The position numbers were made by a program, and so were the translations under genes. The notes beneath the pieces were generated by a model that worked only from the letters and a program-made list of their open reading frames with translations, was not told the DNA's origin and did not search any database. From contig JAHJSH010000035.1 of the NCBI GenBank assembly GCA_018830525.1, positions 5,582 to 69,581 on the forward strand: a stretch of DNA of 64,000 nt. The letters run 5' to 3'. Of the stretch, positions 1 through 17,587 are shown in pieces. Origin of the DNA: Nanobdellota archaeon. GTDB lineage: Archaea > Nanobdellota > Nanobdellia > Pacearchaeales > GW2011-AR1. Every line of letters begins with the position of its first letter. Within the stretch, counting starts at the first letter, position 1.

Positions 1-1004
1 CCATTCCCATGTTTCCTAATCTCCTCTTTTCTAAGATGCTCAACTATCTTCAGAAAATCAATTCCTGGTTGCAATCTTTTACCATCAATATCATTAGAAA
101 TAAACCCAAATGCTTTTTTTCCTTGTCTTGATTTAGGTCGCATTTCTAAATTAAATGAAAATCCATTGTTTGAAACATCATTTAGACTAGAAACAGGTTC
201 AGAAACTGATTGAGAATTACTGCAAATTCCAGGAACTAACCAAGGTGTAATAAAACCATCATCAAACCCAATATCAAAATTTCTTTTCATTCTAATACCA
301 GGATAAATTCCAGCAAACCACTTGTCTTTAATTTTATCTGTTGCTTGTCTTGCTATTTCTGCTGGCTGAACTCTTAATTCTTTAAGTTTCATAGGAATAA
401 GTTTAGTCATTTGCTTTTCAAAATCTTCTCCACTTTTCAATGCTTGTGCAGCAAGATTTGAACCAACTAAATCAGAATACAAATCTTCCCAAGAAAAAGC
501 ACTAGGTCTTTCAGAAAACATAAAAGAAGAATAACCAAGACGAGTAATTATTTCATGCCAAACAGTAGAACAATAAGCAACACGCTCCCCTAAATTAGCA
601 GAAACTATCCTTGCAATCTTTTGCTTATCATTTTTCTTCATAGATTCCCAATTAGAAGGATAGTATATATTAACAAAATAAACAGCACTATCAATTATTT
701 TAAATGAAAATTCTTTTTTATTGTCATTCATAAGATTTTCATAAATAATATCATAAGCATATTTTGTTCTATCAGTACATTCTTTTAAATGCCCTAAATC
801 AATATATCCTCCCTTGCAAGTATAAAGCATTCCTACCTTATCCCCTCTTCCTCCACCATATTTGTATACCCCAATATCTTCAATTCCAAAATGATGAAAG
901 TTACTCCCAAACCAAGGACTATATCTCCAATGCAATGCAAAACATTGAGAAGAAAAACCAGTTAGAACAACTACTAAACTCAATACAACAATTAATTTTT
1001 TCAT
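1..1004 (-). CDS. hypothetical secreted protein, C-terminus cut by window edge
   Basis: Absent from the ORF track because it runs off the window. ATG at 1004-1002 opens an unbroken minus-strand frame to nt 1. N-terminus MKKLIVVLSLVVVLTGFSSQCFA is signal-peptide-like. The 764..1006 + ORF is its antisense shadow. Confidence 0.55.
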   Translation of the reverse strand, partial: MKKLIVVLSLVVVLTGFSSQCFALHWRYSPWFGSNFHHFGIEDIGVYKYGGGRGDKVGMLYTCKGGYIDLGHLKECTDRTKYAYDIIYENLMNDNKKEFSFKIIDSAVYFVNIYYPSNWESMKKNDKQKIARIVSANLGERVAYCSTVWHEIITRLGYSSFMFSERPSAFSWEDLYSDLVGSNLAAQALKSGEDFEKQMTKLIPMKLKELRVQPAEIARQATDKIKDKWFAGIYPGIRMKRNFDIGFDDGFITPWLVPGICSNSQSVSEPVSSLNDVSNNGFSFNLEMRPKSRQGKKAFGFISNDIDGKRLQPGIDFLKIVEHLRKEEIRKHGN

Positions 1005-1195
1005 AATCTCATCTTACCTTTCTTTTTAAAAATATTAAATTATTTTTCATTAATCTCTATTTACTAAATTTATATCAAAAACTACTCATCAACTAATCAT
1101 CAAGGTAGTTTTAATTTTCAATTCAAAAAAATTAGGCTGAGTCTAAATACTCTCTAAGTATAGAAAAATATCAAGAACCCAGCTCAACAACCAGA

Positions 1196-1627
1196 TCATC
1201 TTTTAAGATCTTTTAAACTCATGGAAAAATTTTCTTTCTTTTGTCTAAGCGCTTTTTCATAACTTTCTTTAGCTGAAATTATTCTTTCATAATCAACTAA
1301 ATCCATAGTTAAAGGAATAGACCCAAGATTAAGAGAATTATATTCATTAATTAAAATTTGAACATCAATGCCTTTCTCTTTTTTCTCAGCTAATCTTCCT
1401 AAAATCATTTGTTGAGTTATGCTCAATCTAAAATAAACCGCTTTGCAAGACTCGTATTTTTCAGGATTTACTGGCTCATTAATAATAATCTCTAGATTTT
1501 TAATCTTATTTTGTAATTTCTGAACCTGAGATTTACTTATTCTAGATTTACAACCAGTAAAACTAAAAATTCCAAAAACAAGAAAACAAACAGCTAAAAC
1601 AAAACACATATTACTTAAACTAACCAT
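1196..1627 (-). CDS. small lipoprotein-like protein (lipobox FTGC)
   Basis: AAGGAG 7 nt upstream of the ATG. Hydrophobic N-terminus ends in FSFTG-C. Confidence 0.6.
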   Translation of the reverse strand: MVSLSNMCFVLAVCFLVFGIFSFTGCKSRISKSQVQKLQNKIKNLEIIINEPVNPEKYESCKAVYFRLSITQQMILGRLAEKKEKGIDVQILINEYNSLNLGSIPLTMDLVDYERIISAKESYEKALRQKKENFSMSLKDLKR

Positions 1628-1758
1628 TTTTAAAACTCCTTAAAAAATTAAACTTACTTAACCATCCTTGACCCCCAATGAATCAAAGATGAAACAATAA
1701 CCTCAATCTCCTGACAATTAAAACCTCCTTTCTATAAGGTTAATATTTAAATTAAAAT

Positions 1759-1800
1759 GGCCCAGACGTTTTATCTTTAGAGCAAGATTACATCTGGGCC
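1759..1800 (-). terminator. hairpin plus T-run downstream of the PEP-CTERM gene
   Basis: ggcccaga (1759-1766) pairs with tctgggcc (1793-1800). On the minus strand it is followed by ATTTTAATTT. Confidence 0.4.
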
Positions 1801-1822
1801 TCCATCACTTTTCTACGATTAG

Positions 1823-2611
1823 TTATTTGCGATTTTTTCTGCGGAGCAAGCTTATGGCGCCGAGAGCGAGAAGTGTAATTGTTGTGGGTTCTGGAACGAT
1901 GTTGAGTTGTGTTGCGAGATTGCTTGGAAGAACTTCTAATCCAGAGGTGTATGCACCAATCATTCCAATCGGGCCGTTGAATGTGACTTCGACTATACTT
2001 CCAGCGATTAGCTTTCGAGTTTCTTGGGTCGGATAAAGTCCGATTCTGCTGAATTCGCCATCTTCAATCCAGCCGTTATTGGTGACGATGTAGTCATTGG
2101 TTAACCAGATAGTTCCATCTTCCAAACTTATTGCGTGGTTTTTTACATAACTAGTGAAGCTGAATTTTATTCCGGGAAAGTTGACATTCATGCTTATCGC
2201 TTGTTGAGTTTGCTTGTCGGTGCGGTTTAGGTGGGATGGGTTGTAGGGCGTTGCGTAGAATGTCGTTTCGAGATAGAAATAGACTTTGCGAGGGTCGTGG
2301 GAATTTCGGTAAGCATGTTGTGTCATTTGTTCGAAGTTCCAAGTGTAGCTGAATGCTCCGTGATCTACTTCGGTTACGCCGTAGTAATTTCCGTAACTGT
2401 TGTCTCCATTCCATGTCGCGTTTCCGGTCATTGAAAATTTATCGAAGGATATTGTCTGGGAGAGATATAATTGGTCTCCAGGGATGCCAGGACCAGAACC
2501 GCAACCGCTACCAGAACTTGGTTCAGGGATGCTTGAGATGATTGTCGCGTTTGCTGTTGTGATTGTCAGTAATACTGTTACGATAATTAGGATGATTGTT
2601 TTTTTGTACAT
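1823..2611 (-). CDS. secreted protein with PEP-CTERM-type sorting tail
   Basis: AAGGAG SD and an N-terminal signal peptide. C-terminus VPEPTTITLLALGAISLLRRKNRK has a PEP motif, a TM helix and a basic cluster. Visibly more GC-rich than its neighbours. Confidence 0.7.
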   Translation of the reverse strand: MYKKTIILIIVTVLLTITTANATIISSIPEPSSGSGCGSGPGIPGDQLYLSQTISFDKFSMTGNATWNGDNSYGNYYGVTEVDHGAFSYTWNFEQMTQHAYRNSHDPRKVYFYLETTFYATPYNPSHLNRTDKQTQQAISMNVNFPGIKFSFTSYVKNHAISLEDGTIWLTNDYIVTNNGWIEDGEFSRIGLYPTQETRKLIAGSIVEVTFNGPIGMIGAYTSGLEVLPSNLATQLNIVPEPTTITLLALGAISLLRRKNRK

Positions 2612-2679
2612 TTCTGTACTCCTTTCTTTGCTCTTGTGAGCGTTTGTTAAATTGTTTGATACGCTGTTGTGTTGAGTTG

Positions 2680-3093
2680 TTAAGACTTAGTTAATTCTTC
2701 TTTGCTGTTGCAAATACATTCTATTGTAAATATCATTTGCCAGACAAAAACTCCGATGAAGGCACCTTTTGTTATTCGGCTGATTATTGTTACGTTCGTT
2801 TCTTCGTTGAGAATTCCTGTAAAGAATCCAATGAAACTTCCAATGAACATTAAGGCTGCAAGGTAGACCCATGCTTCTTGATTAAGAATAGTGTCTCGGA
2901 TTCCCCCATAGTCTTTGCTAAGCAGATTTCCTTTTTTTATCCATGAGTAGAGGAAAAAGAAAGCTGAGCAGAGGCTGTATTGGAGAATGATGAGCCATGG
3001 GACGACGACTAAGTCTTCTAATGTGAGTATTTTGTTGAATAAGTATCCCATGTCTTCTTTTATCCAGAAGAATCTTAGTGCCATGAAAGCCAC
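2680..3093 (-). CDS. polytopic membrane protein (possibly longer, see in-frame TGA finding)
   Basis: 137-aa ORF with several hydrophobic helices. The same frame stays open upstream to ATG 3222 except for one TGA at 3162-3160. Confidence 0.5.
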   Translation of the reverse strand: MAFMALRFFWIKEDMGYLFNKILTLEDLVVVPWLIILQYSLCSAFFFLYSWIKKGNLLSKDYGGIRDTILNQEAWVYLAALMFIGSFIGFFTGILNEETNVTIISRITKGAFIGVFVWQMIFTIECICNSKEELTKS

Positions 3094-3332
3094 TGCAGTG
3101 TAAGCTATGCTGAACAGGAATGTTATTAATCTTCTTGCGTCTGCTTTTGTTTTGCATCTTCAGTAAAAGAAACAGATTACTGCTATGATGATTAAGATGA
3201 GAATCGTTAGTGATGTTTTCATTTTACATCTCCTTATTTTAAGGTTACATTAAATTATTCTTTTCAAACAACCAAATCAAAAAGAGCCCCCAACTCAAGC
3301 AAAAGAGGAAGGGGCTAAAACATAATAACTAA

Positions 3333-3881
3333 TCACTTAAACTCTTCAGTCAGCCCACCAATCAGCCCACCAATCAGCCCAGCAATCAGCCCAGCAATCA
3401 GCCCACCAATCAGCCCACCAATCAGCCCAGCAATCAGCCCAGCAATCAGCCCACCAATCAGCCCAGCAATCAGCCCAACAGTCAGCCCAATAATCAGCCC
3501 AACAGTCAGCCCAATAATCAGCCCAAAAATCAGCCCAATAATCAGCCCAGCAATCAGCCCTTCTTCTTTAAAAGATTTTAAATTCTTAAAACCTTTCTTA
3601 ATCCAAGCACAAAGGCAGACAAATATCAAACCGATTAGGATGTATTCAACCACAAACCAAGGAAGGATTTGTATCTGAGTAATAGAAGTTAAACTTTCTT
3701 TGCTCAAACTTCCTAAACCATCCACTATCCAAAACATCTTAATCAAGAACACATTTCCTATCGCTAAACCTATTGCAACAAGTATCAAGAAAAACCTCAA
3801 CCAATGCGAATAGTGAGGGAATTTAATCTTGTCTTTTTGTGCCTCTTTTACTTTTACATTTTCCAGATTTTCATTTTCCAT
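3333..3881 (-). CDS. membrane protein with (GLIx)n glycine-zipper repeat tail
   Basis: AAGGAG SD and two N-terminal TM helices. C-terminal roughly 70 aa are [18 protein letters not shown] repeats. Confidence 0.65.
3351..3560. repeat. 12-nt tandem repeat (about 17.5 units) inside CDS 3333..3881
   Basis: Unit cagccc-NNN-a-R-t repeats head to tail with a 48-nt higher-order unit. It encodes the GLIx repeat. Confidence 0.9.
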
Positions 3882-3919
3882 TTTTACATCTCCTTATTTT
3901 AAGGTTACATTAATTTGTT

Positions 3920-4294
3920 TTAATTTGTGCAAAGATTTTCTACTTTCATAATAACGTAGTTATTCGGGGCGTTGATTCCGAGTCTTACTTGAGTTTTTGA
4001 AAAGACTTGTATCACATACATGACATTTCTGGCCTGTTCCCGATTATTTTTCTTCAGGATGATTATTTCTTGGCCATTGTTTCTGGAAATGTCACAGGTC
4101 CCTAAATCTTTTCCACCCTTCAGAAGAGTCGCGCTTTCTAGGTCTTTTTTGGTTCCTAGTTCTGAGAATTGCGAATGCCCAGACCATACACGAATATTTA
4201 CCCCCCCCTCGGCTTCGATTATGTGAATCAGCAAGTCATTGTTAATTTTGATGACATCATCTTTTTGAAAGGTTCCTTTTGTTTCTGTTAACAT
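3920..4294 (-). CDS. CsrA-signature protein, apparently two fused CsrA-like halves
   Basis: C-terminal half IIILKK...VIQVFSKTQVRLGINAPNNYVIMKVE matches the CsrA pattern (ML.L.R ... V.VL...G..VR[IL]GI.AP). N-terminal half MLTETKG...LIHIIEAEGGVNIRVW is a weaker copy. CAGGAGG SD. Confidence 0.5.
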   Translation of the reverse strand: MLTETKGTFQKDDVIKINNDLLIHIIEAEGGVNIRVWSGHSQFSELGTKKDLESATLLKGGKDLGTCDISRNNGQEIIILKKNNREQARNVMYVIQVFSKTQVRLGINAPNNYVIMKVENLCTN

Positions 4295-4576
4295 GTTAAC
4301 CTCCTGTGTTTATCTAAGATTATTTGGTTTGACCGGATTCCTTTGTAAACTTCTTCTCCGCATTTTATATGACATGTTTGTTCTTTTGGGCTGATGTGGA
4401 TAACGATGCCGTATTCGGTACATGCACGAGTCGTTATCCAAACCGGGCTCTTCCTCTTTTCAAATTTTTGTTATCGCCGTCTTTCATTGGTAATCTCCTT
4501 ATTATTAATAAAATGGAGTCTGAGTTACTTGACTTTTCGCTTAGACTCTTGTAAGTATTGACGCGAGCCGACGTGA

Positions 4577-5392
4577 TTAATCTTTTTTGATTTCTTCGAG
4601 GGCTTTTTCTTCTTCGGAAGGCAAGAGTGCATCTCGGTTTGAGATTATCTGTTGGTAACTCTTCGGGAGAAGGTCGAAGCAACGGGCGCCGTTAGCATTC
4701 ATTTTTCCTAAATTTGCGCCTTCTTCTTTAAGCCAGTTTAAAATCTGTTCGTGTATTCTAATGCTCGGCATTTTTGGATTAGGATTAGAATGGGCGAAAC
4801 TTAGACTCTCGGCAACAATATGTGCAGCTGTTGTCAGAGTTTCCTTTTTTGGAAGGTTTAGGAGATTCTCTTTTTTACCATCTTCTGCTTCGTAGAGCTT
4901 CAAGATAATTTTCATATTGTCGATGTTTAATCCTTTTGCTGCCTTGAACCAACCTTTTTCCAGTTCCTTAAGAGAATATTTGATATTTTCTCCGAGGAGT
5001 GAAAGAACGCTGAGGTTTTTTCCAGAAGCTTTGTGAAATGATTGTATCTTTAGGAAGCCTAATATTCTCGTATGGCACATCGAAGAATAATTGTTTCTTT
5101 CTGCTTCTTCAAGAAGATATTTTTCTGCTCGATGAAATGTTTCGATGGGACTTGATTGAAGCATGTAAATGAAAGAGTAACCAAAACATACTATGCTAAG
5201 AAGAATACAAATACAGAGATCCCATCTAAATGGTTTTTCAACCTCCGGAGTGGCTACCTCAACTTCAGGAGTTGTTGCTTCTACTTTAACAGCAGATGAT
5301 TCGGCGATATTTACTTCAATATTTCGATAGAGGACCAGCATGGTTGCGAACAATGCTAATACTACGACAAACATAAGCAATGAATTTCTCAT
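4577..5392 (-). CDS. membrane-anchored hypothetical protein
   Basis: Start moved to Met15 (ATG 5392), which has GAAAGGAGAAACGAAA upstream. N-terminal TM helix. Confidence 0.55.
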   Translation of the reverse strand: MRNSLLMFVVVLALFATMLVLYRNIEVNIAESSAVKVEATTPEVEVATPEVEKPFRWDLCICILLSIVCFGYSFIYMLQSSPIETFHRAEKYLLEEAERNNYSSMCHTRILGFLKIQSFHKASGKNLSVLSLLGENIKYSLKELEKGWFKAAKGLNIDNMKIILKLYEAEDGKKENLLNLPKKETLTTAAHIVAESLSFAHSNPNPKMPSIRIHEQILNWLKEEGANLGKMNANGARCFDLLPKSYQQIISNRDALLPSEEEKALEEIKKD

Positions 5393-5524
5393 TTTCGTTT
5401 CTCCTTTCAAGAGAATTTGCTCACTATTGAACATGAATGTTTTTTTGTTTGTTTAGAAAAAATGAGTGCCCAAGAGCAAGAAGGGGATTCTTGTGGGCAC
5501 CTGTTTTTGGGAGGGAGGAGAGAT

Positions 5525-5755
5525 TTAATCAGATTCAACTGTGATTGTAAATTGTTGGTCGTACTCCATGAGGGTTGTTTCAATCATTATCTTTGCCAGC
5601 ATTTTCGCTGTTTCGAATGCGATTGGGACATTTCCCGTATTGGTTTCGTTTTCGATAGTTGCGAGATAATTTATACCTCCCACGCGAAAAAATCTTGGCG
5701 ATTTGTCCGTTGTTCCGTGAAAACGTCTTATATTCATTACATATTTTTTCTTCAT
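5525..5755 (-). CDS. hypothetical protein
   Basis: 76-aa ORF co-directional with its neighbours. Weak SD. Confidence 0.4.
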   Translation of the reverse strand: MKKKYVMNIRRFHGTTDKSPRFFRVGGINYLATIENETNTGNVPIAFETAKMLAKIMIETTLMEYDQQFTITVESD

Positions 5756-5827
5756 GATATCATCTTTTAATTTTTTTAAACTGGTTGTTATTTAGAATTG
5801 GAAGGTGCCTGGCGCGATTCAAAATAT

Positions 5828-6325
5828 TTAATCTTTGGCACCGTTCCCGGGGGGAGGAGGACGTTTTTGTATTCTTGAAGAAGGAAGACGACTCTTTGAA
5901 AAGTCTATGGGTTCTTCGACAAATTTTCCATTGAACAGAACGAAGATATTTGTCCAAGGATTGCGGATGCGAAGGTGGTTAAATTCTCCGAAATATTCTG
6001 CCTTGGAACGGATTATACTTTTCCTTAAATAATAAATCTCATCTCCATTCTTCTCTTGTTGTTTATATTCTTCATAAGTTGTGGGATTTTTTAGGAGGTC
6101 TCTTTCCAGGGCGAGTAACTCTGTCTCCTGTAGTGGAATTTCTTTTTCAGAATATTTGATGCTCTTAAGTTCATGACCGTATGCCCAAGAAGTTAGCATC
6201 ACCATTAATAATAGAAATACTATTGAAATCCCCGTCGCAATAACAAGGGGTTCCCAATCCTCTTCCTTAATCGAGATGTAAATTCCCAAACCGATTAATA
6301 CTAATGCGATAATAATCCATAACAT
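5828..6325 (-). CDS. membrane protein
   Basis: Start moved to Met25 (ATG 6325), preceded by AAGGAG. The track start is a TTG. Two TM helices. Confidence 0.5.
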   Translation of the reverse strand: MLWIIIALVLIGLGIYISIKEEDWEPLVIATGISIVFLLLMVMLTSWAYGHELKSIKYSEKEIPLQETELLALERDLLKNPTTYEEYKQQEKNGDEIYYLRKSIIRSKAEYFGEFNHLRIRNPWTNIFVLFNGKFVEEPIDFSKSRLPSSRIQKRPPPPGNGAKD

Positions 6326-6381
6326 AATAGACTCCTTGTTTTGAGGTGATTGTTTTGATTCAGTCACAATGACTAAATCTT

Positions 6382-6645
6382 TTAACTTCCTAAACAACTT
6401 GTGAGTAAGATTTTTTTGGCGGTGGCGAATCTTTGGGATTCTATTTTTTGTTCGACTTTTGCGATTGCTTTATCGAATTCTGCGATTTCATTTACTATTT
6501 GGATTCCGAGTGCCGTTTTATACCTGGCTTTTTCCTTCAGACCTTTTATGTTGATTATTATATCTCGTGCTTTTCTCTCCGTCATCCTCTTAGAGATTAA
6601 TGTAAAGTAATCTATTGCCATTTGAGGATAATTTCTTTTGATCAT
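6382..6645 (-). CDS. hypothetical protein
   Basis: Start moved to Met20 (ATG 6645), preceded by AAAGGAGATCATT. The longer ORF would overlap the tRNA-like element. Confidence 0.5.
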   Translation of the reverse strand: MIKRNYPQMAIDYFTLISKRMTERKARDIIINIKGLKEKARYKTALGIQIVNEIAEFDKAIAKVEQKIESQRFATAKKILLTSCLGS

Positions 6646-6697
6646 AATGATCTCCTTTAAAAAATATTCCAATTTTAGTAAATTAGTTTTACGATAA

Positions 6698-6809
6698 GAC
6701 ATCAGATAGGTTTCGAACCTACAAATCTTCCGGGTTCTTTTCCGGTGGCTTTACCAAGATTGATTCTGATGGATAACCATTGAGATACCAATCTTTAAGC
6801 TACTGATAT
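6698..6809 (-). ncRNA. 111-nt tRNA-like element (acceptor stem and T-arm, no recognisable anticodon arm)
   Basis: Minus-sense 5' ATATCAG pairs with 3' CTGATGT. T-arm is GTAGG-TTCGAAA-CCTAT. Between them lie a long bulged helix (AAGATTG...CAATCTT) and a CCGG...CCGG hairpin. Confidence 0.35.
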
Positions 6810-6817
6810 TTATGTTG

Positions 6818-7621: not shown

Positions 7622-7723
7622 TTTAATCTCCTTATTTTAAGGAATATTTAGTTAGAAAAATTGGGACCGAATAGCCACTGTTGTTATCCGGCCCCATTAC
7701 TGAGCTAGATACCGTGAGCTATA

Positions 7724-8095: not shown

Positions 8096-8227
8096 TTTGT
8101 GTTCCTTTCAATTGAATTTGTGAATCCATTCTTTCGTTAGGAACGTACATCCGTTTACGTTCAGACAGTTCTTCCTCCGTCCAAATAAATACTTACCTGT
8201 GGAGAAGTCACCTCCTTTCTTTGAAAA

Positions 8228-10359: not shown

Positions 10360-10495
10360 AATCAAACTCCGTCTTTTCTAAAAAATTAGATTAATATTAA
10401 TTAAACAATTCAACACAACAATTAACCTTTTCATAACAAACACTCCTTTTCTCTAAATTATTATTTTTATTTTTTATTAATACTTCGAGCGGGAA

Positions 10496-11169: not shown

Positions 11170-11235
11170 AACCTTTAGGGTGTTGGAGGATGTCATTAAT
11201 AATTTAATCTCATTTTAACCCTTTTCGTTAGAAAT

Positions 11236-11265
11236 GGAAAGGCTCCTGAACGAGCGAGCCTTTCC
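11236..11265 (-). terminator. perfect 10-bp hairpin terminator (repeat family)
   Basis: ggaaaggctc - ctgaacgagc - gagcctttcc, downstream of the small ORF 11318..11473. Confidence 0.5.
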
Positions 11266-11317
11266 GATGACAATTTTGTTTAAATTTACATTTGATTGAA
11301 CTGTTTGTTACTTGTTT

Positions 11318-11473
11318 CTATATTGGTTGATGGCGACGTTTACTTTCTTCCGAAGAGATTCTTGCCATCCTATTTACCATCTCAATGAAGATATCTGTTC
11401 TCTCTTCTTCAGAGCTGGCTTCTTGGAGGGCTTTTCGGAACGAGTCTAAACATTCTTCCCTGTTGTTACTCAT
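11318..11473 (-). CDS. small hypothetical protein (51 aa, below the ORF-track cutoff)
   Basis: GGAGATATGAA before ATG 11473. MSNNREECLDSFRKALQEASSEEERTDIFIEMVNRMARISSEESKRRHQPI. Confidence 0.4.
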   Translation of the reverse strand: MSNNREECLDSFRKALQEASSEEERTDIFIEMVNRMARISSEESKRRHQPI

Positions 11474-11538
11474 TTCATATCTCCATATATTTGAGTTAAT
11501 GTTTGTGTTAAGGTTTATTGAATATTTTTTGTTAAAAT

Positions 11539-11618
11539 GGTAAGGGGGTCGCTGTGCCTAGGACTTGCGGAGTTCTGGCCATCAACAGAACTATTCGCCT
11601 CGAATCGAACCCCTTACC
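11539..11618. ncRNA. GC-rich structured element of unknown class
   Basis: ggtaagggg (11539-11547) pairs with ccccttacc (11610-11618). Internal 7-bp hairpin agttctg/cagaact. It sits in an otherwise AT-rich, ORF-free gap. Strand undetermined. Confidence 0.3.
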
Positions 11619-11669
11619 TCGCCAAAAACGTATCTCTTTAAATTTCTCATTAGAAACAATCTTTTTTTA

Positions 11670-11833
11670 TTAGAATTTTGTTTCTAGTCCTAACCCGATT
11701 AATGAAGTTGTCTCATCGTGTGGGCCTCCAGTTTTCTTCCGCTCGGCAATTGGTTTGGCTTTCCAACCTTCGAAGCATCCGGAGAGGGTTAGGGTTATGA
11801 TGATAAACAAATTGTGAGTAATACTTTTTTCAT
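11670..11833 (-). pseudogene. lipoprotein gene interrupted by a 1-nt frameshift in an A6 run
   Basis: AAGGAG plus ATG 11833 gives MKKVLLTICLSS-stop. One extra A in ATGAAAAAAG gives MKKSITHNLFIIITLTLSGCFEGWKAK... (lipobox LSGC), running to the stop at 11672-11670. Confidence 0.4.
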
Positions 11834-11864
11834 TTTAGTTACTCCTTATCGCTTAACATTATTG

Positions 11865-12191
11865 TTAATTATTTGCTAAAATCTTTTCGAGGCCTCCCAT
11901 TTCCACAGGTTTAGGGGGAGCGAGAATCTCTTTGAGGTCTTCTGCTTTTATTGGTTTAAAGCGAGAGATTATTTTTTTGAGGCCCCCTTCTTTTTCAGAG
12001 TCTACTTTTTTGACTTCTTGTTTGGGGTCCCAGTTTTCTTCGGCTTGAGTTATCCCCATGATTTTGTCGGTTCGGCAATCGTAGAGGACGCGGCCTTTTT
12101 CTCTTCCGAGTATCAGGTGCGTTTCATCGATTTCTCTTACATTGCACCAATTTACGCGGATAAGTTGTAATCCTACATATAATCTTTTCAT
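11865..12191 (-). CDS. hypothetical protein
   Basis: Start moved to Met57 (ATG 12191), preceded by AAGGAGAAATGAA. Confidence 0.5.
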   Translation of the reverse strand: MKRLYVGLQLIRVNWCNVREIDETHLILGREKGRVLYDCRTDKIMGITQAEENWDPKQEVKKVDSEKEGGLKKIISRFKPIKAEDLKEILAPPKPVEMGGLEKILANN

Positions 12192-12600
12192 TTCATTTCT
12201 CCTTATTTTCGATAAAAAGACCCCTAACCCCCACAAAACCCAGACGGTATGAGTTAAGCGAGAAACTAGGGGGTAATGGTTTGTTAATATTGAAGTATGG
12301 TTTGTAACTCTCTCACTAAATTTCTTTAAGGGAAGTTGGTTTCGGGCCGACGTTTTCAATATAAAGAGCTAAGATCCTGATTCCAACTTCGTCATTGAAA
12401 TTATTTTCTCTTTGAAGTCGTTTCATTACATAATATGGTTTGAGAGTACTTGGGCCCTTGGTTATATGATTCTTTTCATTTTGTTAACAAGTTTTTTCAT
12501 TTTACTTTTTTTCACTTTGAATCTCCTTATCAAAAGGACTAGCCCTCACAAATCGCTTTAGATTGGCGAGTGAGCGAGGACTGGTTGGTTAATATTTTTG

Positions 12601-12849
12601 TTATTTTTCTAACATTTTTCTCAAGTAAGCGTTTTCTCGGTTGCTTGATTCAATATCGAGAACGAGATATTTTACTAGGATTCTCAAGAGGTCAATGGAA
12701 TCCTGGAGAGTGTCCTGATTTCTTTGAATATTTCCCTTGGCCTGGATAGCCATTTGTAAAGGTTCTCTCTTCCCTTCGTCCGGGGATTGAATAGAGCCGA
12801 ATATCTTGAGAATTACCCATATTTGTTTTTTCATTTCTTCGTTTGACAT
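12601..12849 (-). CDS. hypothetical protein (82 aa)
   Basis: Internal ATG 12849 preceded by AAGGAGATTAACC. The upstream part of the 200-aa ORF overlaps a better membrane ORF in another frame. Confidence 0.45.
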   Translation of the reverse strand: MSNEEMKKQIWVILKIFGSIQSPDEGKREPLQMAIQAKGNIQRNQDTLQDSIDLLRILVKYLVLDIESSNRENAYLRKMLEK

Positions 12850-12896
12850 GGTTAATCTCCTTATCTTTGTAATTGGGGTTAGTATCTCATTACTCC

Positions 12897-13226
12897 CTAT
12901 CCGGCCAATCGGATTAGGAGCAGTAGAATTATGATTATCAAAACTATGATAATCGCCGTTGCGATAAGATGTGCCATCATGAATGTTCCTGCTAATGTGA
13001 GTAGCCATCCGATTCCAAAAACAATTCCTCCACAGAGCCATAATAGGCATTGGAGAATAATCAATGCGATTGCTAATACGAAGCAGAGGATGCAGATGAC
13101 CAAACATACTACGATGACGACTGCGCAGACCTTGACAATGAACATGACTATTTTTGTTATCCATTGAAGCGTGATTGCGATTACGGCTAGGACAAAGTCC
13201 CAAATTTTGTTGAGAAGTCTTTTCAT
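12897..13226 (-). CDS. small Cys-rich membrane protein
   Basis: AAGGAGACAAACAA before the ATG. Three to four hydrophobic helices. Confidence 0.55.
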   Translation of the reverse strand: MKRLLNKIWDFVLAVIAITLQWITKIVMFIVKVCAVVIVVCLVICILCFVLAIALIILQCLLWLCGGIVFGIGWLLTLAGTFMMAHLIATAIIIVLIIIILLLLIRLAG

Positions 13227-13258
13227 TTGTTTGTCTCCTTATTCTAAATTATTGTTTG

Positions 13259-13702
13259 TTATTTTATGCTGCCTTTTGCGACGAGTAAAACTGATAATGC
13301 TGCGAGGATGTAACCTGCGATGCAATACATGTTAGGCATTTCTTTGACCCAAAAGTTTCTGACAAGAACTGTTGCGACTGGCATTAGAATCATCAGGGAG
13401 GTAATTACAATCGCGTTGCCTCCGCTTGTCAATGATGAGTTGAACAGATAGTTTGCTGCGAATACGATTAGTCCTAAGATTAGTAGAGATATCCAGGTTG
13501 CCTTGTCTGTGGGGAATGCCAGGTTTTCAGATGCTGTAGTTGCTTGTATGACTTGGCGGACAATTAAAGCAAGGAGGAGAGTTATTGCAAACTCTATGAT
13601 TAACAAGTTTAGGGCGTGGAGTTTTACAAGTTTTTGTTCGATGACTACGCTTGCGGTTCCGTAAAATGCTACTGCGATTACTGCGAATATTATCGACTTC
13701 AT
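13259..13702 (-). CDS. EamA-like (DMT superfamily) half-size transporter
   Basis: 147 aa with 4-5 TM helices. N-terminal pattern AV.AV.FYG...V..K resembles an EamA domain. Confidence 0.55.
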   Translation of the reverse strand: MKSIIFAVIAVAFYGTASVVIEQKLVKLHALNLLIIEFAITLLLALIVRQVIQATTASENLAFPTDKATWISLLILGLIVFAANYLFNSSLTSGGNAIVITSLMILMPVATVLVRNFWVKEMPNMYCIAGYILAALSVLLVAKGSIK

Positions 13703-13712
13703 GATTATTTCC

Positions 13713-13835
13713 TTATCTGATAATTAATTTGAGAATTGATTTTAGAATGCTCCAGACTATCCAGTAGGTTATCCCGAATATTTCTAGGAGCACGATAGCA
13801 AAAAGGACTACAACTAAATATTGTAATGGTGTCAT
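13713..13835 (-). CDS. 40-aa membrane peptide (below the ORF-track cutoff)
   Basis: AAGGAGATATC before ATG 13835. MTPLQYLVVVLFAIVLLEIFGITYWIVWSILKSILKLIIR. Confidence 0.35.
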   Translation of the reverse strand: MTPLQYLVVVLFAIVLLEIFGITYWIVWSILKSILKLIIR

Positions 13836-13844
13836 GATATCTCC

Positions 13845-14024
13845 TTATTTTTTGAACCATTTTTCGTAAATTGTTTTTGTGGTTAATGTTAAAATTGTTG
13901 ACGCGAGGATTACTCTGACGAACCAGGGGATGTTGAATTCAAAATATTTTTCTGCAATGGTTAATCCGAGGGTGATGATTGCTATGACTGCGAGGATATA
14001 TATTGTTTTTCTATATTGTTGCAT
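13845..14024 (-). CDS. 59-aa membrane protein
   Basis: Start moved to ATG 14024 (AAGGAGATAACC upstream). The longer ORF would overlap tRNA-Thr. Confidence 0.45.
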   Translation of the reverse strand: MQQYRKTIYILAVIAIITLGLTIAEKYFEFNIPWFVRVILASTILTLTTKTIYEKWFKK

Positions 14025-14060
14025 GGTTATCTCCTTATTAGTTAGATTATTTTTATTTAA

Positions 14061-14133
14061 GTGAGGAGACAGGATTCGAACCTGCAACCTTCTGATTACA
14101 AATCAGGTGCTCTGCCAATTGAGCTACTCCTCA
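14061..14133 (-). tRNA. tRNA-Thr(UGU): tRNA-Thr (anticodon UGU)
   Basis: Hand-folded cloverleaf: TGAGGAG-TA-GCTC-AATTGGCA-GAGC-A-CCTGA-TTTGTAA-TCAGA-AGGTT-GCAGG-TTCGAAT-CCTGT-CTCCTCA-C. U1-A72 pair. No encoded CCA. Confidence 0.85.
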
Positions 14134-14160
14134 TGCCAACTAGATACCCATGTAGCTGGC

Positions 14161-14763
14161 TTATTTCTCCGAAGAAAAAGTTTCTTCGGTTGTTATTGTG
14201 CTGTTCGGCGATTTGATTGTAACTTTGCGGATGAGGGTAGGCCTCTTTAAACTTAACTCTTCTATCTCACGAAGGTTTTCCTTTATCAGATCAAAGCCTT
14301 CGCGATAGATTCTATTCATGCTCACTAAATCTCTAGAGAGAATCATTTGTGATTCAGTAACTTTGCACAAATCTTTTTGAAGAGCATACTGTGGTTCTGG
14401 TGCCTTTAAAGATTTGGTCGATTCTTCCGGAGGTGTAGTATCGACAAAGGTTTCGGGGGCTTGTTCGCGGAGCTCTGGATTTAGGAGAATTCGTGCAGTG
14501 AGAATCTTTACGAGTTCGTCTTGAGCTTGTTCTCGTTCTTTACGAGGATTACCTCGCCGTATTCTCATTTGAGCATCCGTGACTTTTTCATGGTATGCCG
14601 CTTCAATTTCTGCCCAATGAGCCGAATTAGAAACTCCGAGAACTTTCCGAGCTTGTGGCTTCGTCATTTTTTCGTCATTTTTCTTTGCTTCTTTCTTCAT
14701 TGGTGTTTTTTTCTTAGGTGCCTTTTTCTTTGCTTCTTTCTTCATTGCTTTTTTAGCCATCAT
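14161..14763 (-). CDS. hypothetical protein with Lys/Ala-rich N-terminus
   Basis: AAGGAGCC before the ATG. MMAKKAMKKEAKKKAPKKK... basic tail, then a helical region. Confidence 0.55.
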   Translation of the reverse strand: MMAKKAMKKEAKKKAPKKKTPMKKEAKKNDEKMTKPQARKVLGVSNSAHWAEIEAAYHEKVTDAQMRIRRGNPRKEREQAQDELVKILTARILLNPELREQAPETFVDTTPPEESTKSLKAPEPQYALQKDLCKVTESQMILSRDLVSMNRIYREGFDLIKENLREIEELSLKRPTLIRKVTIKSPNSTITTEETFSSEK

Positions 14764-14855
14764 GGCTCCTTTCTTTTGGTCGACTATTCGGTGATTAATA
14801 ATTTGTCGTTAAAGCATATTAACGATACACCCTCTCCCCTTCTTCCTCGGTGAGA

Positions 14856-15053
14856 TTAGTGACTACATTGTGCGAGTTTATCTTCCCATGTTTTCTTCAA
14901 GTCTTCGAAGAAGTCAAGGTCACTTTTGAACTGGCGAATTCTCGTGGTGTTGTCTCCGGGTTGTTTCTCCAGTCCGCCAATGCTTGCTTGAATGCGGGCC
15001 ATCCATTTGTCGATTCTTTCAATTTTATCCATACATGTTTTTTTGTCAATCAT
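14856..15053 (-). CDS. hypothetical protein
   Basis: AAGGAGAGGTATT before the ATG. 65 aa. Confidence 0.5.
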   Translation of the reverse strand: MIDKKTCMDKIERIDKWMARIQASIGGLEKQPGDNTTRIRQFKSDLDFFEDLKKTWEDKLAQCSH

Positions 15054-15079
15054 AATACCTCTCCTTATCTAAGTTAACA

Positions 15080-15235
15080 TTATTTTTTATTCCATTTTTT
15101 CTTTTTAGGATTACTTCTGATTTCCTTCCATCGTTTTTTGAATGTCCATTGCCCATTGAAATCTTTGAATATCATTGAAGCAATGAAAAGGATAAGCAGT
15201 AAGACTCCTCCAATGATTGTTAGCCATTTCCACAT
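15080..15235 (-). CDS. 51-aa membrane peptide (below the ORF-track cutoff)
   Basis: AAGGAGATTCCT before ATG 15235. MWKWLTIIGGVLLLILFIASMIF... with a basic tail. Confidence 0.4.
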   Translation of the reverse strand: MWKWLTIIGGVLLLILFIASMIFKDFNGQWTFKKRWKEIRSNPKKKKWNKK

Positions 15236-15279
15236 AGGAATCTCCTTATACTTGAACATAATTGTTTTTCATTTAACCT

Positions 15280-15353
15280 AGCGCGTGGTTGGACTCGAAC
15301 CAACAATCTCCTGATTTGCAGTCAGGTGTCTTAGCCATTTTGACCACACGCGC
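15280..15353 (-). tRNA. tRNA-Cys(GCA): tRNA-Cys (anticodon GCA)
   Basis: GCGCGTG-TG-GTCA-AAATGGCTA-AGAC-A-CCTGA-CTGCAAA-TCAGG-AGATT-GTTGG-TTCGAGT-CCAAC-CACGCGC-T. U73 discriminator is typical of tRNA-Cys. Confidence 0.9.
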
Positions 15354-15364
15354 TTACTCTGGTT

Positions 15365-15646
15365 TTAGCTATTTTTTGAATTTCTGGAGGCGGAAACTGA
15401 AGAGCTACCCCCTAGGTCAAAAAGAACTCCAACAATTAGGAGAACTATCCATCCCCCGCTAACACTTCCTTCGTTGTTGAGCATTGTAGCCATGTAAGCC
15501 AAAGTTATGAAAGGCATGAATAAGAATCCTAAAAAAGGCCAAATCCTCGTTTCAAATGTTCTACTGAACCAGTCACTCATAAGCCAAGCGAAGAACATGA
15601 AAACTCTTGGACAAAACACAGATAAGATTACATATAAATATCCCAT
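15365..15646 (-). CDS. small membrane protein
   Basis: AAAGGAGTTTATC before the ATG. Three TM helices. Confidence 0.55.
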   Translation of the reverse strand: MGYLYVILSVFCPRVFMFFAWLMSDWFSRTFETRIWPFLGFLFMPFITLAYMATMLNNEGSVSGGWIVLLIVGVLFDLGGSSSVSASRNSKNS

Positions 15647-15673
15647 GATAAACTCCTTTCAAATTAGATTAAA

Positions 15674-15892
15674 TTAATACTCTGCTTTTTTCAGTCTTTC
15701 ATTCGGGTTGCGTTGTTGTCTTCGTTCATAGGTCCTCCCGTTTTTTCGTAAACTGTTTAAATGTGTGCAAGAGGGGCAAATCCTATTTCCCCATCCCCCA
15801 GACTGAAACTGTTTTTCGCATTTTAAACATTTTCTGGAAGCTATTTTCGTTTCTTCAATTATTGTATCAATATCAATCATTTTAATCTCCAA
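15674..15892 (-). CDS. zinc-ribbon protein
   Basis: CLKC...CPSC four-Cys pattern. TGGAGATTAAA before the ATG. Confidence 0.55.
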   Translation of the reverse strand: MEIKMIDIDTIIEETKIASRKCLKCEKQFQSGGWGNRICPSCTHLNSLRKNGRTYERRQQRNPNERLKKAEY

Positions 15893-15931
15893 TCTTCTTC
15901 TTAAGTAAATGTTAATTATTTATTACGATAA

Positions 15932-15981
15932 GCAGCACAAAAGGATTCGAACCTTTTTGAACTCCATGTAAGTATGTGCTA
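15932..15981 (-). ncRNA. 50-nt mini tRNA-like fragment (acceptor stem and T-arm only)
   Basis: TAGCACA pairs with TGTGCTG. T-arm is AAAGG-TTCGAAT-CCTTT. Only 18 nt lie between, with no D-arm and no canonical anticodon arm. Confidence 0.3.
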
Positions 15982-15996
15982 CACAACAACGAAAGG

Positions 15997-16155
15997 CTAA
16001 TCGTCGTTTTCGCATGCATGATTCATTCCGAAACCAAGGGCGTACATATCTCCGATTTCTTCAGGTTCTGACCTCAGGTCGATTGTTTCGGGTCCTCTTT
16101 CGTTCTCTTGAATTTCTTGATTAATTTCTTCTGCTGTTTTTCTTTTGTTACTCAT
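15997..16155 (-). CDS. 52-aa acidic protein (below the ORF-track cutoff)
   Basis: AAGGAGATTTACT before ATG 16155. MSNKRKTAEEINQEIQENERGPETIDLRSEPEEIGDMYALGFGMNHACENDD. Confidence 0.35.
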   Translation of the reverse strand: MSNKRKTAEEINQEIQENERGPETIDLRSEPEEIGDMYALGFGMNHACENDD

Positions 16156-16272
16156 AGTAAATCTCCTTATACTTGCTCGTTTGAGCGGTTGTTAATGTAA
16201 TGTGGTCAACACACGTTAACGGCACATCAAAGCCTCCACTCGGTGAGTTGAATGGAGGTTGTTGGCGAGTCG

Positions 16273-16581
16273 TTAGAGGGTGGAGCGTTCACTTAGGTCT
16301 CTGAAGAACATTCCAATTTCTTCTGCGGTGGCTTGGGAGCTAATCATTGAGTCGAGTTCTTTTCTTAGGTAAGGACGTATAATCATTGTCGCCCATAACT
16401 CCCTGATTTCGAATCTTTCCACTTCATCGGCATGTATACTGATTCTGGCTCCGTCGAAGATTCTTCCGCAATCATTGAATCTCCCGATCTGGATGGTAAT
16501 GTTTTCCCCTTCTGTAGAGAGATAAGATGTTTCGAAATCTTTTTCAGTACATCGGATGTTGCGTTTTAGTTTCTTACTCAT
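16273..16581 (-). CDS. hypothetical protein
   Basis: AAGGAGATTACC before the ATG. 102 aa. Confidence 0.5.
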   Translation of the reverse strand: MSKKLKRNIRCTEKDFETSYLSTEGENITIQIGRFNDCGRIFDGARISIHADEVERFEIRELWATMIIRPYLRKELDSMISSQATAEEIGMFFRDLSERSTL

Positions 16582-16748
16582 GGTAATCTCCTTATCTAAA
16601 TGTTATGAATGTTTTTGAAAATGAGTCCGACTTACCAACCTTAAGAGAATAGAACAGAAAGGAAATCCAAAGTTCTATCTCGTATTAGCAGGAATTCGGT
16701 CGGACTCTCCAAGTATAGGCGCATGTGCTGTAGCGCATGGTCAGATGA

Positions 16749-16871
16749 TTATTCTTTGGTGTTTTCTTTAGCGGGTGGTTCTGGCTGTTCGTCATAAGAT
16801 TCGATTGGGTCTTTGAATTCTTCCGATTCGTGTTCCTGTTCCTCGATTGTTTCTTTTTTGTTCTTTGACAT
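16749..16871 (-). CDS. 40-aa acidic protein (below the ORF-track cutoff)
   Basis: AAGGAGATTTACA before ATG 16871. Preferred over the overlapping 16792..16983 ORF, which lacks an SD. Confidence 0.4.
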   Translation of the reverse strand: MSKNKKETIEEQEHESEEFKDPIESYDEQPEPPAKENTKE

Positions 16872-16892
16872 TGTAAATCTCCTTATCTTTTG

Positions 16893-17003
16893 TTAACATA
16901 AACTGATGTAGGCTGCGATAACGATTATCACGAAGCCTGTTGGATTGTTTGCGACTCGTTCTTCGAAGGCACATTTTAACCAATTGTAAATTAAATTCTT
17001 CAT
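16893..17003 (-). CDS. 36-aa membrane peptide
   Basis: AAGGGGGGAAAAACT before ATG 17003. MKNLIYNWLKCAFEERVANNPTGFVIIVIAAYISLC. Confidence 0.3.
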   Translation of the reverse strand: MKNLIYNWLKCAFEERVANNPTGFVIIVIAAYISLC

Positions 17004-17023
17004 AGTTTTTCCCCCCTTGTTGT

Positions 17024-17251
17024 TTAGGATTGAAGAAGTTTCTTTAGTTTGTGAACCATGTTCCAAATAGGTTCTGATTCATCACTCCTATCGCCAAGTC
17101 CATTTTCTCGGTTAGAGATGATTTGGTCCCAGAGTTTTAACAGAATGTATTTTAGTTCTCCCATGCAATAAGGCGTGCCTTTCACTAACTTTCGATTGGG
17201 AGGTAAAATCTCTTTCATCGTTTTAAGTTCTCGTTCGTTGAAAATATACAT
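17024..17251 (-). CDS. hypothetical protein (first gene of the SD-type array)
   Basis: AAGGAGATTTACC before the ATG. 75 aa. Confidence 0.5.
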   Translation of the reverse strand: MYIFNERELKTMKEILPPNRKLVKGTPYCMGELKYILLKLWDQIISNRENGLGDRSDESEPIWNMVHKLKKLLQS

Positions 17252-17270
17252 GGTAAATCTCCTTATTATA

Positions 17271-17437
17271 CGTATTCCGTTAGAAATACTGGTTAAAATT
17301 GTTTAGAATTTATGTGGAAAACCTTATATTAGGTATTCCGGTTGATTTTAGTAAATTTGACAGAAAGTTCACTTAGATAGAATTCTTTGGTCGTACCTTA
17401 TTCCGTAGCTATTTCCTAGCTTTTGGAGGTATTTCCT
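17271..17437 (+). promoter_or_regulatory. iteron cluster 1 (GTATTCCG-type motif, five copies)
   Basis: cgtattccg 17271, ggtattccg 17332, cttattccg 17397, ctatttcct 17409, ggtatttcct 17428, all in one orientation. An AT-rich stretch follows to 17587. Confidence 0.5.
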
Positions 17438-17587
17438 TGCCTAAATTTTTATTTTAGGTCTTTGTTTCCACGAGGTTTCTGGTGTGTTAATGAATTTAAT
17501 ATTTTTGAGGTATTAAATTGTTGTCTATGGATCTCTATTGAGATGATGTGTGGAAGTGTTTAAATTTTTGATATTTGTAAATGTGAT

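Follow-up and report, generated by a model that had tools for sequence, protein, structure and literature searches.

DPANN archaea are thought to be dependent on other cells, and their acquisition and use of foreign genes are poorly known. Flexible ('replacement') genomic islands, or integration hotspots, are a known kind of locus in streamlined prokaryotes. The type VIIb secretion loci of Firmicutes consist of an FtsK/SpoIIIE-type EssC ATPase followed by variable modules of toxin, immunity and small-protein genes, and the 'moron' regions of large phages are accessory regions with scattered tRNAs. Clusters of attC sites lacking integron integrases (CALINs) are by definition without IntI. Integrons, defined by their attC sites, have been described in archaea including Nanoarchaeota, and archaeal integrons and CALINs have been proposed as a platform for gene flow from bacteria to archaea (Ghaly et al. 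2022, PMC9668308). Archaea are further known to have DNA-import systems of the Ced/Ted type and ATPases of the VirB4 type (PMC11868833, PMC9905601), and the HerA/VirB4-like ATPase CedD is needed for DNA import in Saccharolobus (PMC11868833). In the present study, a stretch of 64,000 nucleotides from a Nanobdellota archaeon (assembly GCA_018830525.1, contig JAHJSH010000035.1, positions 5,582 to 69,581; hereafter the window) was analysed with regard to an array of short genes that fills its left part and is headed by a HerA/FtsK-superfamily ATPase gene.

The array is the largest example seen of a lineage-conserved module, which on its coding strand consists of p144, the HerA/FtsK-type ATPase, a structured leader of approximately 250 nt and a hypervariable array of co-oriented short genes. 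In closer relatives the module ends with an AT-rich element of approximately 45 nt, followed by ppdK. We lean, with modest confidence, towards a lineage-conserved, ATPase-linked chromosomal hotspot that collects captured foreign, largely bacterial, genes. This hotspot, or island, ranked first among the explanations considered, and an integrated mobile element with p144 and the ATPase as its core ranked second. Comparison of related genomes showed arrays at the same place with gene content that, as judged by homology, is largely unrelated. It was also shown that predicted Shine-Dalgarno (SD)-led starts and putative hairpin terminators are used in the arrays of a host whose own genes appear leaderless, and that small products of membrane, secreted or lipoprotein-like type are over-represented in the arrays.

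Like flexible genomic islands, the array occupies the same position between conserved flanks and is unrelated in content between close relatives, and it shares with them a bias towards the envelope and cell surface and the presence of tRNA and insertion sequence (IS) genes; composition is atypical in most instances, but the GC and codon usage of the present array are those of the host. Unlike such islands, the array is strictly co-oriented with and always headed by a single conserved ATPase operon with a structured leader, the association of ATPase and array survives a change of chromosomal context, the translation and termination signals are foreign to the host genes, and the content crosses domains. 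Type VIIb loci resemble the module in that an FtsK/HerA-superfamily ATPase is followed by hypervariable, co-oriented genes for small secreted, membrane and lipoprotein products. However, no WXG100, LXG or other component of these secretion systems was recognised, the ATPase is distant, the host is an archaeon, and the arrays hold tRNAs and foreign housekeeping-type genes (FliS, CsrA and sigma-70). Phage moron regions share the many tiny one-strand open reading frames (ORFs), the strong SD sequences, the hairpin terminators and the tRNAs matched to codon preference, but the array contains no phage family except MORN, IS200 and a zinc ribbon, and it lies at a fixed chromosomal site with conserved flanks.

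Recurrence of the array behind the ATPase

The window was read together with 8.2 kb to its left on a longer contig of the European Nucleotide Archive (ENA), about 72 kb of genome in all, and negative coordinates denote positions left of the window start on that contig. Labels such as L008 and L029 denote other contigs that were compared, L003 being the ENA contig. In relatives, the genes for p618, L35Ae, L10e, a methyltransferase (MTase), p144 and the HerA-like ATPase are followed by a gap and then by ppdK, in this order and on one strand. The gap between ATPase and ppdK measures 1.5-4.9 kb in the relatives and 24.8 kb here, from the end of the ATPase at 17588 to the start of ppdK at -7211. 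The array proper extends from 17251 to about -6050, approximately 23.3 kb, of which about 6 kb lie outside the left end of the window; left of about -6050 there are a gene on the opposite strand, a repeat and the promoter of ppdK. When the array proteins were compared with 80 loci of relatives (E < 1e-5), no homologues were found, with one weak exception. Moreover, SD-led co-directional arrays of small genes lie 3' of the ATPase in 11 GTDB genomes, with unrelated content and mostly with higher GC (in L023, 0.46 in the array versus 0.34 in the flank). The presence of different arrays at the same spot, after the same ATPase, in related archaea points to a recurrent site for foreign, largely bacterial, genes.

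A scan of metagenomes with an ATPase profile retrieved 80 further loci, and statistics were computed on the 48 with at least 1.5 kb downstream. p144 preceded the ATPase in 43 of 43 metagenome loci. The ORFs downstream of the ATPase were co-oriented with it in 442 cases and opposite in 30, and SD matches were found for 335 of the downstream ORFs under a lenient and for 218 under a strict definition. The GC of the array exceeded that of the upstream flank by more than 0.03 in 27 of the 48 loci and was lower in 1, and 322 of 472 array proteins were singletons. The recurrence of SD-led co-oriented arrays behind p144 and a HerA-like ATPase in 11 genomes and 48 metagenome loci is new. Loci in which the ATPase was at least 65% identical kept the L10e/MTase context; an ATPase clade at 52-57% identity lies in a different one, where several arrays end at the archaeal S13-S4-S11-RpoD operon. 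Since the two clades stand in different contexts, the link between p144, ATPase and array survives a change of context.

In the array of L095, four genes of the window were found in the same order, encoding the FHA protein (35% identity), a 267-aa membrane protein (73%), the CsrA-like protein (36%) and the PEP-CTERM protein (29%; overall range 29-73%), which suggests that some vertical continuity of the arrays exists, with fast divergence. In sister arrays with the L10e/MTase context, Pfam searches gave a match of 79 bits for a canonical CsrA (L029) and one with E = 1e-29 for FliS (L023). Furthermore, 69 large array proteins from loci of proven archaeal context included sigma-70 (regions 2 and 4), PEP-CTERM (two proteins), FHA, Band_7, dockerin and DUF2491 matches, and in this set Pfam gave no recombinase, transposase or virion protein. 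Matches to secretin, TonB_C, T9SS-tail and BACON families came from the distant ATPase clade and were set aside, not being taken as evidence for archaeal arrays. In one contig of that clade, L138 (a 76 kb metagenome contig whose ATPase is 55% identical to that of the window), bacterial-type secretins (GspD/PilQ) at L138:6547-7893 and L138:16602-20204 flank the pair of p144 and ATPase, and no archaeal marker was present among the genes tested. The ATPase module may be present in bacteria too; otherwise L138 belongs to an archaeon that carries secretins.

Reality of the junction

An earlier note on the window, made from its sequence alone, had described a sharp change of gene style between 17.25 and 17.59 kb and had named an integrated virus or plasmid, massive recent transfer between domains and a chimeric assembly as possible explanations. 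The change was confirmed, together with the families and signals typical of bacteria left of the junction, inside an archaeal DPANN/Nanoarchaeota chromosome, and with L10e, L35Ae and tRNA-Tyr to its right. So abrupt a change is what one would expect from bacterial or phage DNA misassembled onto an archaeal contig; however, three assemblies agree across the junction. By exact-protein look-up the window matched the ENA contig ERZ27247117:k141_592417 (MEGAHIT; 74,371 bp), which reaches 38 kb further left, and the junction of ATPase and array is spanned by the independent Logan contig SRR6514730_237567 (8,984 bp). Identity between the window and the ENA and Logan contigs was 100% over 7,024-31,841. 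Only two differences separate the window from the ENA contig, one in a tandem repeat of gene 3333-3881 and the other in a patch of 90 nt at 645-734; on account of these differences, the window is a separate assembly.

In addition, the block is bracketed by archaeal genes, the HerA-like ATPase and ppdK, which are close neighbours in related Nanoarchaeota and stand here in conserved order; the block is therefore an insertion within an archaeal chromosome and not a join at a contig end. NCBI lists one of the array proteins under the name 'MAG: hypothetical protein KKF50_05415 [Nanoarchaeota archaeon]', and the closest relatives of L10e (71-86% identity) belong to metagenome-assembled genomes (MAGs) of Woesearchaeota, Pacearchaeota and Nanoarchaeota. 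The same architecture recurs in 11 genomes and in 48 metagenome loci from many studies, and GC and codon usage are uniform across the junction. A chimeric assembly is extremely improbable on these grounds and was rejected for the concordance of the three assemblies and the archaeal synteny on two sides, even though binning errors do occur in this group, as L008 shows. The block is a genuine chromosomal island in a DPANN archaeon (Nanoarchaeota; Woesearchaeota- or Pacearchaeota-like).

L008 (JAOTSI010000042.1) carries archaeal L10e, L35Ae and ATPase together with an array, yet it was deposited in a 'Desulfobulbaceae bacterium' MAG; this bin assignment is probably wrong and may have been prompted by the bacterial look of the array. 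As for the two differences between the contigs, gene 3333-3881 encodes a (GLIxGLIGGL)n repeat (repeat region at 3394-3539), which is 96 bp longer in the ENA contig and contains all 21 mismatches of the gene; the difference in length indicates strain or assembly variation. The patch at 645-734, inside the DUF4056 gene at 1-1004, has 15 mismatches in 90 nt and looks like a local recombination patch between strains.

Start signals, terminators and composition

The AAGGAG start signals that the earlier note had placed left of about 17.25 kb were borne out: 34 of the 44 minus-strand AAGGAG sites of the window fall in 1-17.3 kb, nearly all of them 5-9 nt before an ATG. AGGAG or GGAGG was present at -4 to -16 in 22 of 29 confidently called minus-strand genes of 1-17.25 kb, and the consensus was (A)TAAGGAGAT. 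In general form, the signal before the array genes is (A/T)AAGGAG(A). Right of 17.6 kb such sites are rare, mostly away from starts and almost never at real genes. The host genes have TTTATAA-like boxes about 26-33 nt upstream of their starts and are thus leaderless, in agreement with the earlier description of the right side. The ORFs left of 17.25 kb lie almost entirely on the minus strand. The roughly 45 short co-directional genes reported before were indeed short and on one strand, but their number came to about 30, plus approximately 6 SD-led mini-ORFs.

Stem-loop terminators with T-runs had also been reported. In a scan for hairpins followed by a T-run, which allowed loops of up to 45 nt and used shuffled sequence for comparison, 15 of 39 island genes had such a hairpin downstream (shuffles, 4%) versus 5 of 47 host genes (shuffles, 8%). 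A strict scan with loops of at most 8 nt gave no enrichment in the island, because the loops of the island hairpins exceed that length; the intergenic hairpins have long loops and are followed by T-runs, and one of them is repeated (Table 1).

Comparison of composition on the two sides of the junction had been proposed as a check. The GC of the window is flat (0.31-0.41), with no step near 17 kb; island GC is 36%, and GC at third codon positions is 0.325 in the island versus 0.311 in the host. The root-mean-square deviation of codon usage between island and host was 0.062, which lies within the host-versus-host null of 0.068 +/- 0.022. Tetranucleotide correlation with the host mean was moderately shifted, at 0.63-0.81 in the island versus 0.81-0.90 in host windows. 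With a composition so like that of the host, the foreignness of this array rests on its gene families and signals. TM (transmembrane) or signal-like segments were found in 58% of array proteins versus 39% of host proteins, and the median protein length was 109 aa in the array versus 198 aa in the host.

GC and codon usage equal to those of the host would also suit an ordinary, vertically inherited archaeal operon region whose SD sites belong to internal cistrons of long operons. The use of SD sites at operon-internal genes is known in archaea rich in leaderless transcripts, and Nanoarchaeota chromosomes carry members of some array families at other places as well (L091). However, SD sites are rare at the operon-internal host genes of the window, many array genes are followed by a hairpin terminator, families of bacterial type occur in this array (PEP-CTERM and DUF4056) and in sister arrays (FliS, CsrA and sigma-70), and most sister arrays are elevated in GC. 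The unrelated content at the same locus in close relatives already largely refutes this explanation, which we consider very unlikely.

Array genes and their origin

The PEP-CTERM tail reported earlier was recovered by PF07589 (27.1 bits; gathering threshold 20.7) and by TIGR02595 (18.4 bits; cut-off 16), and no cognate exosortase or archaeosortase was seen in the approximately 72 kb examined. The FHA protein and the lipobox proteins held as well, the former with a strong Pfam score (Table 1) and the latter as lipobox-like N-termini among the array proteins. For the protein said to carry a CsrA signature, a CsrA-like domain was found, but its 20.7 bits remain under the curated family threshold of 27. 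Further Pfam and NCBIfam matches were an EamA half-transporter in the array and, just outside the left end of the window, MORN and Ppnp-like proteins.

The best non-self matches of DUF4056 had 44-46% identity. For the better-scoring DUF4056 matches whose contexts were examined (L089 and L090), the genes lie in bacterial-type chromosomes with a tandem DUF4056 pair, and one such chromosome carries bS16, TrmD and bL19. The p358 family comprises more than 238 proteins at 47-58% identity and is chromosomal in both domains; its named members belong to Nanoarchaeota, Sedimentisphaerales, Phycisphaerales and Syntrophales. Four island genes were found at 46-74% identity, in a different order, on L087, a Hainich groundwater contig from a Nanoarchaeota bin, and the ratio of nonsynonymous to synonymous substitution rates for the genes in common was 0.25-0.36. 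The best bacterial homologues of array proteins had 44-56% identity, and the GC of the bacterial loci examined was 42-62% versus 36% in the island. Host-like GC and codon usage together with such distant bacterial homologues suggest that the array genes have a bacterial ancestry but are not recent arrivals. The massive recent transfer between domains that had been envisaged is contradicted by the same data and by the substitution rates.

tRNAs and codon usage

An Rfam scan at E <= 5 gave three tRNAs in the array and no other RNA family. The oddities noted before were found again, namely a weak tRNA-Arg(ACG) with a mismatch, the U1-A72 pair of tRNA-Thr and two tRNA-like pieces (Table 1). The Arg codon CGC accounts for 23 of 227 Arg codons in the array versus 0 of 443 in host genes (10.6k host codons), in which CGT is used 35 times. 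The share of TGC among Cys codons is 37% in the array versus 23% in the host, and the island encodes a tRNA-Cys. The arrays of the 48 metagenome loci contain 11 tRNAs, including Ile-AAT (twice) and Thr-AGT. A34 anticodons are thus recurrent in array tRNAs (Arg-ACG here, Thr-AGT, and Ile-AAT twice), at 9173-9247 of the window, at L009:18449-18525 and in the arrays of L094, L095 and L121. To our knowledge, A34 anticodons are not found in archaeal tRNA sets, and bacteria, as far as we know, normally use A34 only in Arg-ACG. The arrays of relatives also hold Thr-AGT, extra copies of Val-TAC and, in L023, a putative suppressor tRNA(TTA).

The ATPase, the leader and the flanking elements

Pfam matches of the ATPase to DUF87, ResIII and Zot were all weak. 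Its best named match was the NCBIfam model of CedD (59 bits versus a cut-off of 600), limited to the ATPase core; VirB4_plasma gave 26 bits (cut-off 590), the NCBIfam HerA model was likewise far below its cut-off, and the PDB match was 8yho (DUF87). The resemblance to Ced/Ted systems lies in this best match; unlike CedD, however, the protein has a score far from the cut-off and no N-terminal TM segment seen by eye, and no CedA-, VirB6- or pilin-like partner is conserved beside it, only p144. A known defence system was also considered and rejected, as PADLOC gave nothing beyond weak mad8 and HerA matches for the ATPase. The C-terminal approximately 60 residues are highly conserved and, by eye, have the look of a winged helix; Pfam and PDB-profile searches gave no significant match for them. 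The role of the ATPase could be the handling of DNA, or the export and assembly of array products.

A leader of approximately 250 nt, shared by the closer relatives, is common to 12 of 12 aligned loci. In the window it contains repeats of the motif CGGAATA and several hairpins (17491-17520, 17393-17437 and 17316-17340), and in the last hairpin, GAAATACC...GGTATTTC, two pairs showed compensatory changes (RNAalifold). Only two places in the window have clusters of GGAATA-type motifs, the leader and the initial 60 nt of p144, and the 5' coding region of p144 contains four GGAATAY motifs. The pattern of the last leader hairpin, the palindrome AATAYC-N6-16-GRTATTYC, was found at the leader position in 9 of 92 loci examined and elsewhere once. 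The AT-rich element of approximately 45 nt at the far end of the array (-6100 to -6051) is also present in L014, L016 (twice), L023 and L029. Furthermore, a GC-rich direct repeat of approximately 53 nt, which contains the hairpin ACGGCTTTGCCGT, brackets p144, the ATPase and the array with its two copies. This repeat was not found in any relative, and its interpretation as a general attachment (att) site was rejected for that reason.

These elements bear on an integrated, possibly decayed mobile element (provirus, plasmid, or integrative and conjugative element), with p144 and the FtsK/HerA-type ATPase as core and the SD-led array as cargo. In two relatives (L037 and L030) the MTase adjoins ppdK and the whole unit is missing, the unit occurs in two chromosomal contexts, and the direct repeat brackets it here. 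Conjugative and viral elements typically have FtsK/HerA ATPases (compare the weak VirB4, CedD and Zot matches), an IS200 gene is present, the array tRNAs fit the codon use of the array itself, which is a phage-like trait, and the arrays of relatives and metagenome loci are compositionally foreign. However, neither the region read here nor 150 representative array proteins contained integrase, replication, relaxase, capsid, portal or terminase genes. The divergence of the ATPase resembles that of neighbouring host genes, the repeat is absent from relatives, and the leader and distal element are conserved although the content differs. An element of this kind is therefore unlikely in our estimation, though it comes next after the hotspot.

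For a virus in particular, PHROGs matched only MORN, IS200 and zinc ribbon, and neither PHROGs nor Pfam gave phage hallmark genes. A tblastn search of 2,636 aa of island proteins against 50,697 phage genomes (INPHARED) gave no match, and the ATPase family was not found in the 2.9 million contigs of IMG/VR, either with the single ATPase or with a 12-sequence profile. The phage reading was rejected on these negative scans. The lack of capsid, portal, terminase and integrase genes, reported before for positions 1-17,587, holds also for the 8.2 kb read further left. In addition, no Pfam family of a VirB6/CedA-like channel, a pilin partner or a relaxase was found in the array scans.

Short, co-directional, SD-led ORFs of mostly unknown function, strongly biased in orientation (442 versus 30) and headed by a conserved region, are also what an integron-type cassette array would show, in which promoterless cassettes are inserted one way by IntI at attI/attC sites; the content across domains fits the published role of archaeal integrons, and the occurrence in DPANN genomes is a further likeness to archaeal CALINs. 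However, when both strands were scanned for the attC arms R''(RYYYAAC)...R'(GTTRRRY), 3 raw matches were obtained, none of them with complementary arms. The hairpins between the genes are short, diverse in sequence and followed by T-runs, and are thus terminator-like. No tyrosine recombinase was found by Pfam, NCBIfam or PHROGs in the approximately 72 kb or in the scanned arrays, and an ATPase, not a recombinase, heads the array. An integron was disfavoured for want of attC-like sites on the pattern scan and of IntI, and is highly improbable.

A more far-reaching proposal, which we rate as decidedly unlikely, is that p144 and the ATPase, the leader with its GGAATAC motifs and the array form a dedicated DNA-handling system in one of two forms. 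The first would be an attC-less, orientation-specific locus for the capture and expression of bacterial genes. In the second, by analogy with Streptomyces TraB/clt and Agrobacterium T-DNA (transferred DNA), the array, with its tRNAs and its expression signals of bacterial style, might be cargo that the episymbiotic archaeon translocates into a bacterial partner. Consistent with such a system are the link of ATPase and array, invariant over more than 45% ATPase divergence and two contexts, the orientation bias, the bacterial-type cargo (sigma-70, FliS, CsrA and PEP-CTERM) and the A34 tRNAs.

Formation, use and meaning of the array

Under the favoured reading of a conserved hotspot, the arrays would be built by repeated, orientation-biased gain and turnover of small foreign modules of ultimately bacterial origin, for which bacteria of the PVC type (Planctomycetes, Verrucomicrobia and Chlamydiae), such as Sedimentisphaerales, are likely sources in this window. 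Transcription of the modules may begin in the conserved leader region and stop in part at the hairpins, and the array genes would be translated by SD pairing. The array tRNAs may supply codons avoided by the host, such as CGC, and the modules might be kept for remodelling of the cell envelope or for interaction with a host.

Several observations weigh against this reading. Neither a recombinase nor an att-type site nor any other machinery for capture was identified, and both the acquisition of genes and its orientation bias are what we infer. Most array proteins belong to no known family, and the ATPase is only weakly similar to characterised proteins; a single-sequence model of it had a predicted local distance difference test score (pLDDT) of 37, was unusable and was set aside. 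Sigma-70-like promoter sites were not enriched in the array, no promoter motif was found for it, and an archaeal TATA pattern inside it was not established. The array of this window has host-like GC and codon usage with only a moderate tetranucleotide shift, and the distant clade (52-57% identity) includes contigs of unproven domain, such as L138 with its two secretins.

If the hotspot is real, a conserved site that gathers bacterial-type genes would be a concrete and testable route of gene flow from bacteria to archaea. The collected genes would keep bacterial-style translation and termination signals in a host with leaderless mRNAs, providing a natural experiment on two modes of translation initiation that coexist in one cell. 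The constant pairing of a divergent FtsK/HerA ATPase with a structured leader points to an underlying mechanism; should this mechanism be the capture or delivery of DNA, it would represent a new kind of interaction between domains. Moreover, 'mosaic' contigs in DPANN bins should not be thrown out as chimeras.

Coordinates of the features

Table 1. Features of the array and of its surroundings.
Feature	Position	Strand	Remarks
HerA/FtsK-superfamily P-loop ATPase (651 aa)	17588..19543	-	always heads array; 66-77% identity in relatives
p144, small partner protein	19545..19979	-	directly upstream of ATPase; no Pfam family
Conserved non-coding leader	17252..17587	-	from ATPase stop to first array gene
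Direct repeat of ~53 nt	20046..20151	-	copy split by 53-nt insert; next to MTase
Direct repeat of ~53 nt, second copy	-7015 to -7068		just upstream of ppdK
Variable array, part in window	1..17251	-	~30 short co-directional SD-led genes and ~6 mini-ORFs
DUF4056 protein	1..1004	-	last 10 codons and stop lie past left end of window
DUF4056 protein, second copy of the pair	-1934 to -954		
PEP-CTERM protein	1823..2611	-	VPEP, TM and RRKNRK tail; PF07589 and TIGR02595
Protein with CsrA-like C-terminal domain	3920..4294	-	Pfam, below threshold; homologue in L095
tRNA-like acceptor/T-arm piece, second	6701-6771		
FHA-domain protein	8668..9126	-	61.6 bits
tRNA-Arg(ACG)-like gene	9173..9247	-	weak, 37.6 bits; A33 and T-stem mismatch
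p358, membrane-anchored protein	9289..10365	-	family in Sedimentisphaerales/Phycisphaerales bacteria and Nanoarchaeota
IS200/IS605 Y1 transposase	10662..11129	+	sole mobility gene; opposite strand to array
Repeated hairpin terminator (GGAAAGGCTCGCTCGTTCAGGAGCCTTTCC and T-run)	11233..11262	-	further copies at 8227-8252 and about -4020
tRNA-Thr(UGU)	14061..14133	-	U1-A72 pair
tRNA-Cys(GCA)	15279..15354	-	
tRNA-like acceptor/T-arm minihelix (GGTTCGAATCC)	15931..15981	-	Rfam blank

Other observations

The 3' half of tRNA-Val(TAC) is present as a 44-nt copy at 24216-24259 on the minus strand, next to p618, and the full tRNA-Val(TAC) gene lies 7.7 kb away at 31917-31987, also on the minus strand; in relatives the full gene adjoins p618. 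This arrangement suggests that the region of 24.26-31.9 kb is a further element, distinct from the array, which inserted into tRNA-Val and duplicated the att site. The region encodes p202, DUF4238, a 399-aa protein, lipase-like, NUDIX and zf-AN1 proteins and others; these genes have an archaeal, leaderless style, lack homologues in the loci of relatives, and include no recognisable integrase.

An isolated ORF of 47 aa (VIVKLEVLYDDMNIHGGRSRDEVIRAIDRAMNGATWEASGNGWIARR) with a strong AAAAAGGAGGATAAAGTG start is present at 44317-44460 on the minus strand, and the intergenic region of 560 nt around it (44200-44766) contains two copies of the direct repeat CCACTACTACTCTCAAATCAACTACCACCAC. In a related archaeal MAG, a 151-aa protein encoded at L012:3930-4385 on the minus strand has a C-terminus that resembles sigma-70 region 4, as judged by eye (ISDVIGVAPSRVSQVHTDLMRRLK); its gene belongs to a cluster of small genes upstream of tRNA-Val, outside the ATPase-linked array.

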